Shown: positions 1 through 494 of the stretch, one piece after another | Layout: each line of letters begins with the position of its first letter | Numbering within the stretch: position 1 is the stretch's first letter | Origin: Escherichia coli | Lineage (GTDB): Bacteria; Pseudomonadota; Gammaproteobacteria; Enterobacterales; Enterobacteriaceae | Strand: one strand, 5' to 3' | NCBI RefSeq assembly: GCF_003334335.1 | Contig: NZ_QOWQ01000143.1 | DNA: 853 nucleotides | Notes under the pieces: model-generated | Databases searched by the model: none | What the model was told of the DNA's origin: nothing | Seen by the model: only the letters and a program-made list of their open reading frames with translations | Program-made: the position numbers and the translations under genes

Positions 1-494
1 GTCACCCACATGCTGTACTGCACCTGGGCCATGTAAGCCGACTTTATGGCCTCGAAACCACCGAGCCGGAACTTCATGAAATCCCTGGAGGTAAACGGGC
101 ATTTCAGCTCAAGGCCATTGCCGTCACTGCATAAACCATCGGGAGAGCAGGCTGTGCGCATACTTTCGTCGCGATAGATGATCGGGGATTCAGTAACATT
201 CACGCCGGAAGTGAATTCAAACAGGGTTCTGGCGTCGTTCTCGTACTGTTTTCCCCAGGCCAGCGCCTTAGCATTAACTTCCGGAGCCACACCGGTGCAA
301 ACCTCAGCCAGCAGGGTGTGGAAGTAGGACATTTTCATGTCAGGCCACTTCTTTCCTGAGCGGGGCTTTGCTATCACGTTGTGAACTTCTGAAGCGGTGA
401 TGACGCCGAGCCGTAATTTGTGCCATGCATCATCCCCCTGTTCGACAGCTCTCACGTCGATCCCGGTACGCTGCAGGATAATGTCCGGTGTCAT
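1..494 (-). CDS. exo: Lambda exonuclease (Exo / Red-alpha), 5'->3' dsDNA exonuclease; N-terminal 164 codons, 3' end truncated by window edge (full protein is about 226 aa)
   Basis: Minus-strand translation from the ATG at 494-492 reads [164 protein letters not shown](T), with no stop through position 3. This matches the lambda Exo N-terminus as I recall it, including Arg28 and the PD-(D/E)XK catalytic residues Asp119, Glu129 and Lys131. It was absent from the ORF track only because there is no in-window stop codon. Confidence 0.96.

Follow-up and report, generated by a model that had tools for sequence, protein, structure and literature searches.

The question raised by this locus is how the exonuclease of a phage recombination operon comes to be translated, by ribosomes that arrive afresh at its own start codon or by way of the translation of the annealase gene directly upstream, whose stop codon overlaps that start. 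The window (the whole stretch of DNA that we analysed, 853 nucleotides long) is 100% identical at the DNA level to positions 5549-6401 of Escherichia phage PhiR5_1 (PV340545.1), in which the annotated gene order is Kil, Gam, Bet and exonuclease. On its minus strand there are two long open frames, each running off an edge of the window: the 3' part of bet, which encodes the Red beta annealase (853-491, annotated as Bet in PV340545.1; the last 120 codons and the stop codon TGA at 493-491), and the 5' part of exo, which encodes lambda exonuclease, or Red alpha (494-1, codons 1-164, annotated as exonuclease in the same record). The translation of 494-1 is that of lambda exonuclease (PDB 6M9K_A/1AVQ) in 164 of 164 residues from Met1 on (E=1.6e-111), and the translation of 853-491 is identical to the Bet C-terminus (8TFU_A, also 6M9K_D) at 79 of 80 residues, bearing out the gene names proposed in the initial annotation. 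The same structure upholds its statement that Bet and Exo form a physical complex, as PDB 6M9K holds three Exo chains together with three chains of the Bet C-terminal domain; 6M9K_D is the C-terminal domain of Bet from these co-crystals, and the gene upstream of exo encodes this Exo-binding domain.

The window segment is matched by 198 phage records, most of them at 95-99% identity, among which are lambda-like phages, 434, SfI and many Stx-converting phages. With the lambda Red operon it shares the genes, their order, the ATGA overlap, the Shine-Dalgarno (SD) motif AAGGTGG and the spacer CAGC, and within the 80 nt around the junction the two differ at few nucleotides; Bet residue 256, for example, is Ala (GCA) in lambda and Thr (ACT, 514-512) in the window. 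Judged by every feature of sequence that we compared, the locus is where bet meets exo in the pL (Red) operon of a lambdoid phage. The PhiR5_1 neighbourhood differs from that of lambda further upstream, where a HipA toxin and a HipD antitoxin are annotated in the same leftward operon, upstream of kil (positions 1-1487 of the PhiR5_1 locus, L001); these two genes are an accessory insertion, and lambda is without them at that place. The 3' junction of exo is likewise overlapping, by 10 nt with an orf60a-like gene in PhiR5_1 (L001 4031-4040) and by 4 nt in lambda (L003 549-552), and chained gene overlaps run through the exo part of the operon in both phages.

Read directly on the minus strand, the frame of bet ends in GAG CAG AAG GTG GCA GCA TGA and that of exo begins with ATG ACA CCG GAC, and the two meet in the tetranucleotide ATGA at 494-491. 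The exo start codon (494-492) takes its first base, A494, from the third position of the final Ala codon of bet and overlaps the bet stop codon (493-491), such that the coding sequences, the stop codon counted, overlap by 4 nt. These positions, and that of the AAGGTGG upstream within bet, agree with the initial annotation, which erred on one detail: it had the stop and start codons share three nucleotides, and they have two in common, T493 and G492. An identical 4-nt overlap is found in lambda (NC_001416, complement), where bet occupies 32025-32810 and exo 31348-32028. ATG494 is the first possible start of exo, because its reading frame is interrupted by an in-frame TGA at 512-510; the next candidate start after it is a GTG 13 codons downstream, and the N-terminus of the encoded Exo is the same as in the crystallised lambda protein. 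The gene junction is unambiguous; as a motif it is only modestly unlikely by chance.

Within the last codons of bet, the motif AAGGTGG (505-499, minus strand) contains the core AGGUG (504-500), which pairs without mismatch to CACCU in 16S rRNA, and is separated from the exo ATG by a 4-nt spacer, CAGC (498-495). Upstream of the ATG, the most favourable duplex with the 3' tail of 16S rRNA (GAUCACCUCCUUA) is centred on AGGUG and has an energy of -8.1 kcal/mol, which places it in the top 1.4% of the minus strand (12 of 843 ten-mers pair equally well or better, grouped in three other places). Read in the AGGUG register, the motif lies at a distance that would be about 7 nt if counted from the canonical GGAGG core, within the usual functional range of SD spacing, and the curated record of phage 434 has a ribosome-binding site annotated at the equivalent position. 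Complementarity to the anti-SD is strongest elsewhere in the window, in the GGGGGAU of exo codons 18-22 (424-443, minus strand; -11.2 kcal/mol); three out-of-frame ATGs (433-431, 430-428 and 426-424) come after it, the last of them opening a 28-codon reading frame (426-340, minus strand). The G-run of this site is absent from more distant exo genes, and for that reason we regard the site as probably a by-product of the codons for Q-G-D-D.

Taken together, bet-exo agrees in every sequence feature with the class of gene pairs that undergo termination-reinitiation at ATGA: co-directional genes, the overlap, and an SD motif in the upstream gene. Five native ATGA pairs of E. coli were examined with dual reporters and premature stop codons (Huber et al., 2019; PMC6728339), and the outcome lends coupling general experimental support: three pairs proved strictly coupled, one was coupled to about 60% and one (bioBF) was uncoupled, and removal of the SD lowered reinitiation in four of the five. 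These pairs share with bet-exo the co-directional arrangement, the 4-nt stop/start overlap and the SD inside the upstream gene, but whereas they were tested with reporters and range from strict coupling to none (PMC6728339), bet-exo is placed among them from its sequence. For lambda itself, the CnRed paper of 2025 states that Exo production depends on this coupling, by way of assertion and not of a test (PMC11934132). We found in the searchable literature no direct experiment on bet-exo coupling, on polarity of bet nonsense mutations on exo or on profiling ratios. Reduced amounts of exonuclease in certain classical amber mutants of bet carry no weight in our argument.

The architecture of the junction can be read off directly, and what we infer from it is that Exo translation is coupled to Bet translation by termination-reinitiation, a reading to which we assign a probability of roughly 0.65. 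Under this model a single transcript, with no intervening promoter, would carry bet and exo. On reaching the UGA (493-491) a ribosome would end bet with the AUG of exo one base behind; the SD (AGGUG/AAGGUGG), 5-7 nt upstream, would retain the ribosome, whole or as its 30S subunit, and allow it to restart on exo. Ribosome traffic on bet may in addition keep the structured ribosome-binding region of exo open for fresh 30S subunits. In sum, Exo synthesis would track Bet synthesis; coupling would fix the Exo:Bet ratio, at no more than 1 and not necessarily at equimolarity. As to the single transcript, a consensus scan of the minus strand of the window, a weak test in that its promoter part covers consensus sigma-70 sites only, revealed no sigma-70-like promoter and no intrinsic-terminator-like site, and a search of the window against Rfam returned no match at E<=1. 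On the plus strand, which is non-coding, there is one terminator-like stem-loop with a T-tract (718-741), and such sites occur there at chance frequency (1 found versus 0.6 expected).

We compared the junction in close and distant relatives. The close set comprised 83 loci: lambda, 434, PhiR5_1 and 80 from IMG/VR whose Exo has 97% identity or more. Neither ATGA nor AAGGTGG varies in any of the 83, but we rejected this invariance as evidence: divergence in the set is very low, since of the 80 positions surrounding the junction no more than about a dozen vary, and the bases concerned are also constrained by coding. The distant set covered 14 lineages, with Exo 28-100% identical to the query, whose junctions were read individually; the lineages are not independent of one another and the start positions are those of gene-caller annotations. 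A 4-nt ATGA overlap directly upstream of exo occurs in nine of these 14 lineages, with Bet, RecT or ERF encoded upstream: PhiR5_1/lambda and Mannheimia 535AP2 (Bet), TL-2011c, Erwinia Midgardsormr38, Aeromonas 4_4512 and Vibrio 1.177.O (all RecT), Vibrio vB_VpP_1 (ERF) and two Klebsiella phages. The remaining junctions are a 17-20 nt overlap in Pseudomonas phages, a 1-nt overlap (TAATG) in Yersinia vB_YenM_12, where a homing endonuclease gene lies between bet and exo, an annotated gap of 5 nt in Paracoccus Shpa and an annotated gap of 94 nt in Acinetobacter TCUAN1. The endonuclease gene of vB_YenM_12 (L090 959-1447) abuts bet without a gap and overlaps exo by the 1 nt, and a second homing endonuclease gene lies 3' of exo. 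In both Shpa (L095 1498-1510) and TCUAN1 (L096 1462-1603) the start of exo is probably mis-annotated. In Shpa an unannotated in-frame ATG at 1498 overlaps the stop codon of ERF as ATGA; in TCUAN1 the annotated start, TTG 1603, evidently lies too far downstream, with Exo homology from 1501 on and in-frame ATGs at 1462 and 1489.

Each of the 11 lineages that we scored has an SD-like motif before exo (-4.5 to -9.8 kcal/mol), and an AGG at a fixed distance of 7 nt from the ATG is invariant across the aligned Bet and RecT contexts. As in the window, SynExo modules with RecT or ERF (TL-2011c, Vibrio vB_VpP_1) have the annealase directly upstream of a nuclease of the lambda-Exo/YqaJ type, but that annealase is without sequence homology to Bet. 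Between TL-2011c and lambda the sequences upstream of the ATGA, in recT, are unrelated, from the ATGA on they are homologous, and both the overlap and an SD are kept. When TL-2011c (L084 1431-1581) is set against PhiR5_1 (L001 3290-3440), the mosaic boundary coincides with the gene junction.

The initial annotation had also argued that the overlap fits the function of Bet and Exo as a complex. This argument is weak, as the other co-directional neighbour pairs in the same loci, which we took as control, overlap by 4 nt in 28 of 73 cases (38%). Set against this background, the nine overlapping exo junctions out of 14 represent a marginal enrichment (binomial P=0.045, Fisher P=0.067), and we dropped the proposal of specific selection for overlap at annealase-exo junctions on account of these values (P~0.05-0.07). 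Because 28 of the 73 other pairs share the overlap type, we take the ATGA overlap to be the standard junction in these early operons of phages, with at most a mild preference for it before exo; it is no mark of partners in a complex.

That background frequency bears on the most serious rival to coupling, according to which most translation of exo starts with ribosomes newly bound at its own SD, independently of bet, with the ATGA as a neutral by-product of genome compaction. In its favour, 38% of other neighbour pairs in these operons have the overlap as well, and an SD of -8.1 kcal/mol is respectable and could support initiation by itself. Engineered constructs that supply exo with a ribosome-binding site of its own yield functional Exo, which we count in favour of independent initiation. 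E. coli bioBF sets a precedent, since it initiates de novo despite its ATGA overlap, but the other four of the five E. coli pairs are coupled (PMC6728339). The tight junction, moreover, persists where an unrelated annealase family replaces the upstream gene. The predicted accessibility of the start site also speaks against independent initiation: the cost of opening the region from -18 to +12 of the exo start is predicted at 13-14 kcal/mol, compared with 7.5-9.8 kcal/mol for gam and bet, and the ribosome-binding region of exo is accordingly predicted to be more structured than theirs. Over 11 lineages the mean opening cost is 11.3 kcal/mol for exo versus 8.6 kcal/mol for the annealase gene (one-sided Wilcoxon P=0.034). 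A structured exo initiation site, as these folding predictions suggest, is compatible with a benefit from upstream ribosomes, although it is not uniform across lineages. On balance we consider it unlikely that independent initiation accounts for most Exo synthesis.

The same high opening energy would also fit a coupling of another kind, in which ribosomes on bet merely melt an RNA structure over the exo SD and a different ribosome then initiates, with no true reinitiation. When the 120 nt around the junction are folded, both the minimum-free-energy and the centroid structures contain a predicted hairpin, GCCACU and GGUGGC enclosing an 8-nt loop (517-498, minus strand), whose 3' arm comprises most of the SD and whose isolated energy is -8.5 kcal/mol in the window. 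Its energy in lambda is weaker, at -5.5 kcal/mol, the overall fold of the 120 nt is not better than that of shuffled sequence (z=-1.1), and in more distant homologues the upstream sequences differ. Among the 83 related loci, position 514 in the 5' arm is A, G or T, giving Thr, Ala or Ser at Bet 256; a G at this position retains a G·U pair and a T breaks a pair of the hairpin. We found no covariation of the hairpin in these 83 loci, its 3' arm being invariant and compensatory changes being absent. On these grounds (z=-1.1, no compensatory changes, a pair broken in some relatives) the hairpin was rejected as a conserved RNA element and retained at most as a minor or contributory mechanism, and we judge it improbable that coupling here works by unmasking only. 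Less credible still is an extended version, in which the hairpin, formed with bet codons 255-257, masks the exo SD so as to make Exo strictly conditional on Bet translation, and in which the polymorphism of residue 256 (G/A/T at 514) tunes the Exo:Bet ratio among lambdoid phages. Coupling by termination-reinitiation, with whatever contribution ribosome traffic may make to opening the start site, is the reading that we prefer.

Annotations of lambda have included the overlap ever since the sequencing of its genome. It is given in the lambda reference annotation, its interpretation as translational coupling is in print (PMC11934132), and both are thus already known. Slightly new are two points from the comparative work, namely that tight junctions preceded by an SD recur before exo with three annealase families (Bet, RecT and ERF), and that the overlap is barely enriched over the operon background, which makes it no specific signature of complex-forming partners. 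For discovery the finding matters little; its practical relevance lies in the re-engineering of Red recombineering operons, where Exo levels may change when bet is deleted, truncated or recoded, or when the operon is moved to hosts with different reinitiation behaviour.
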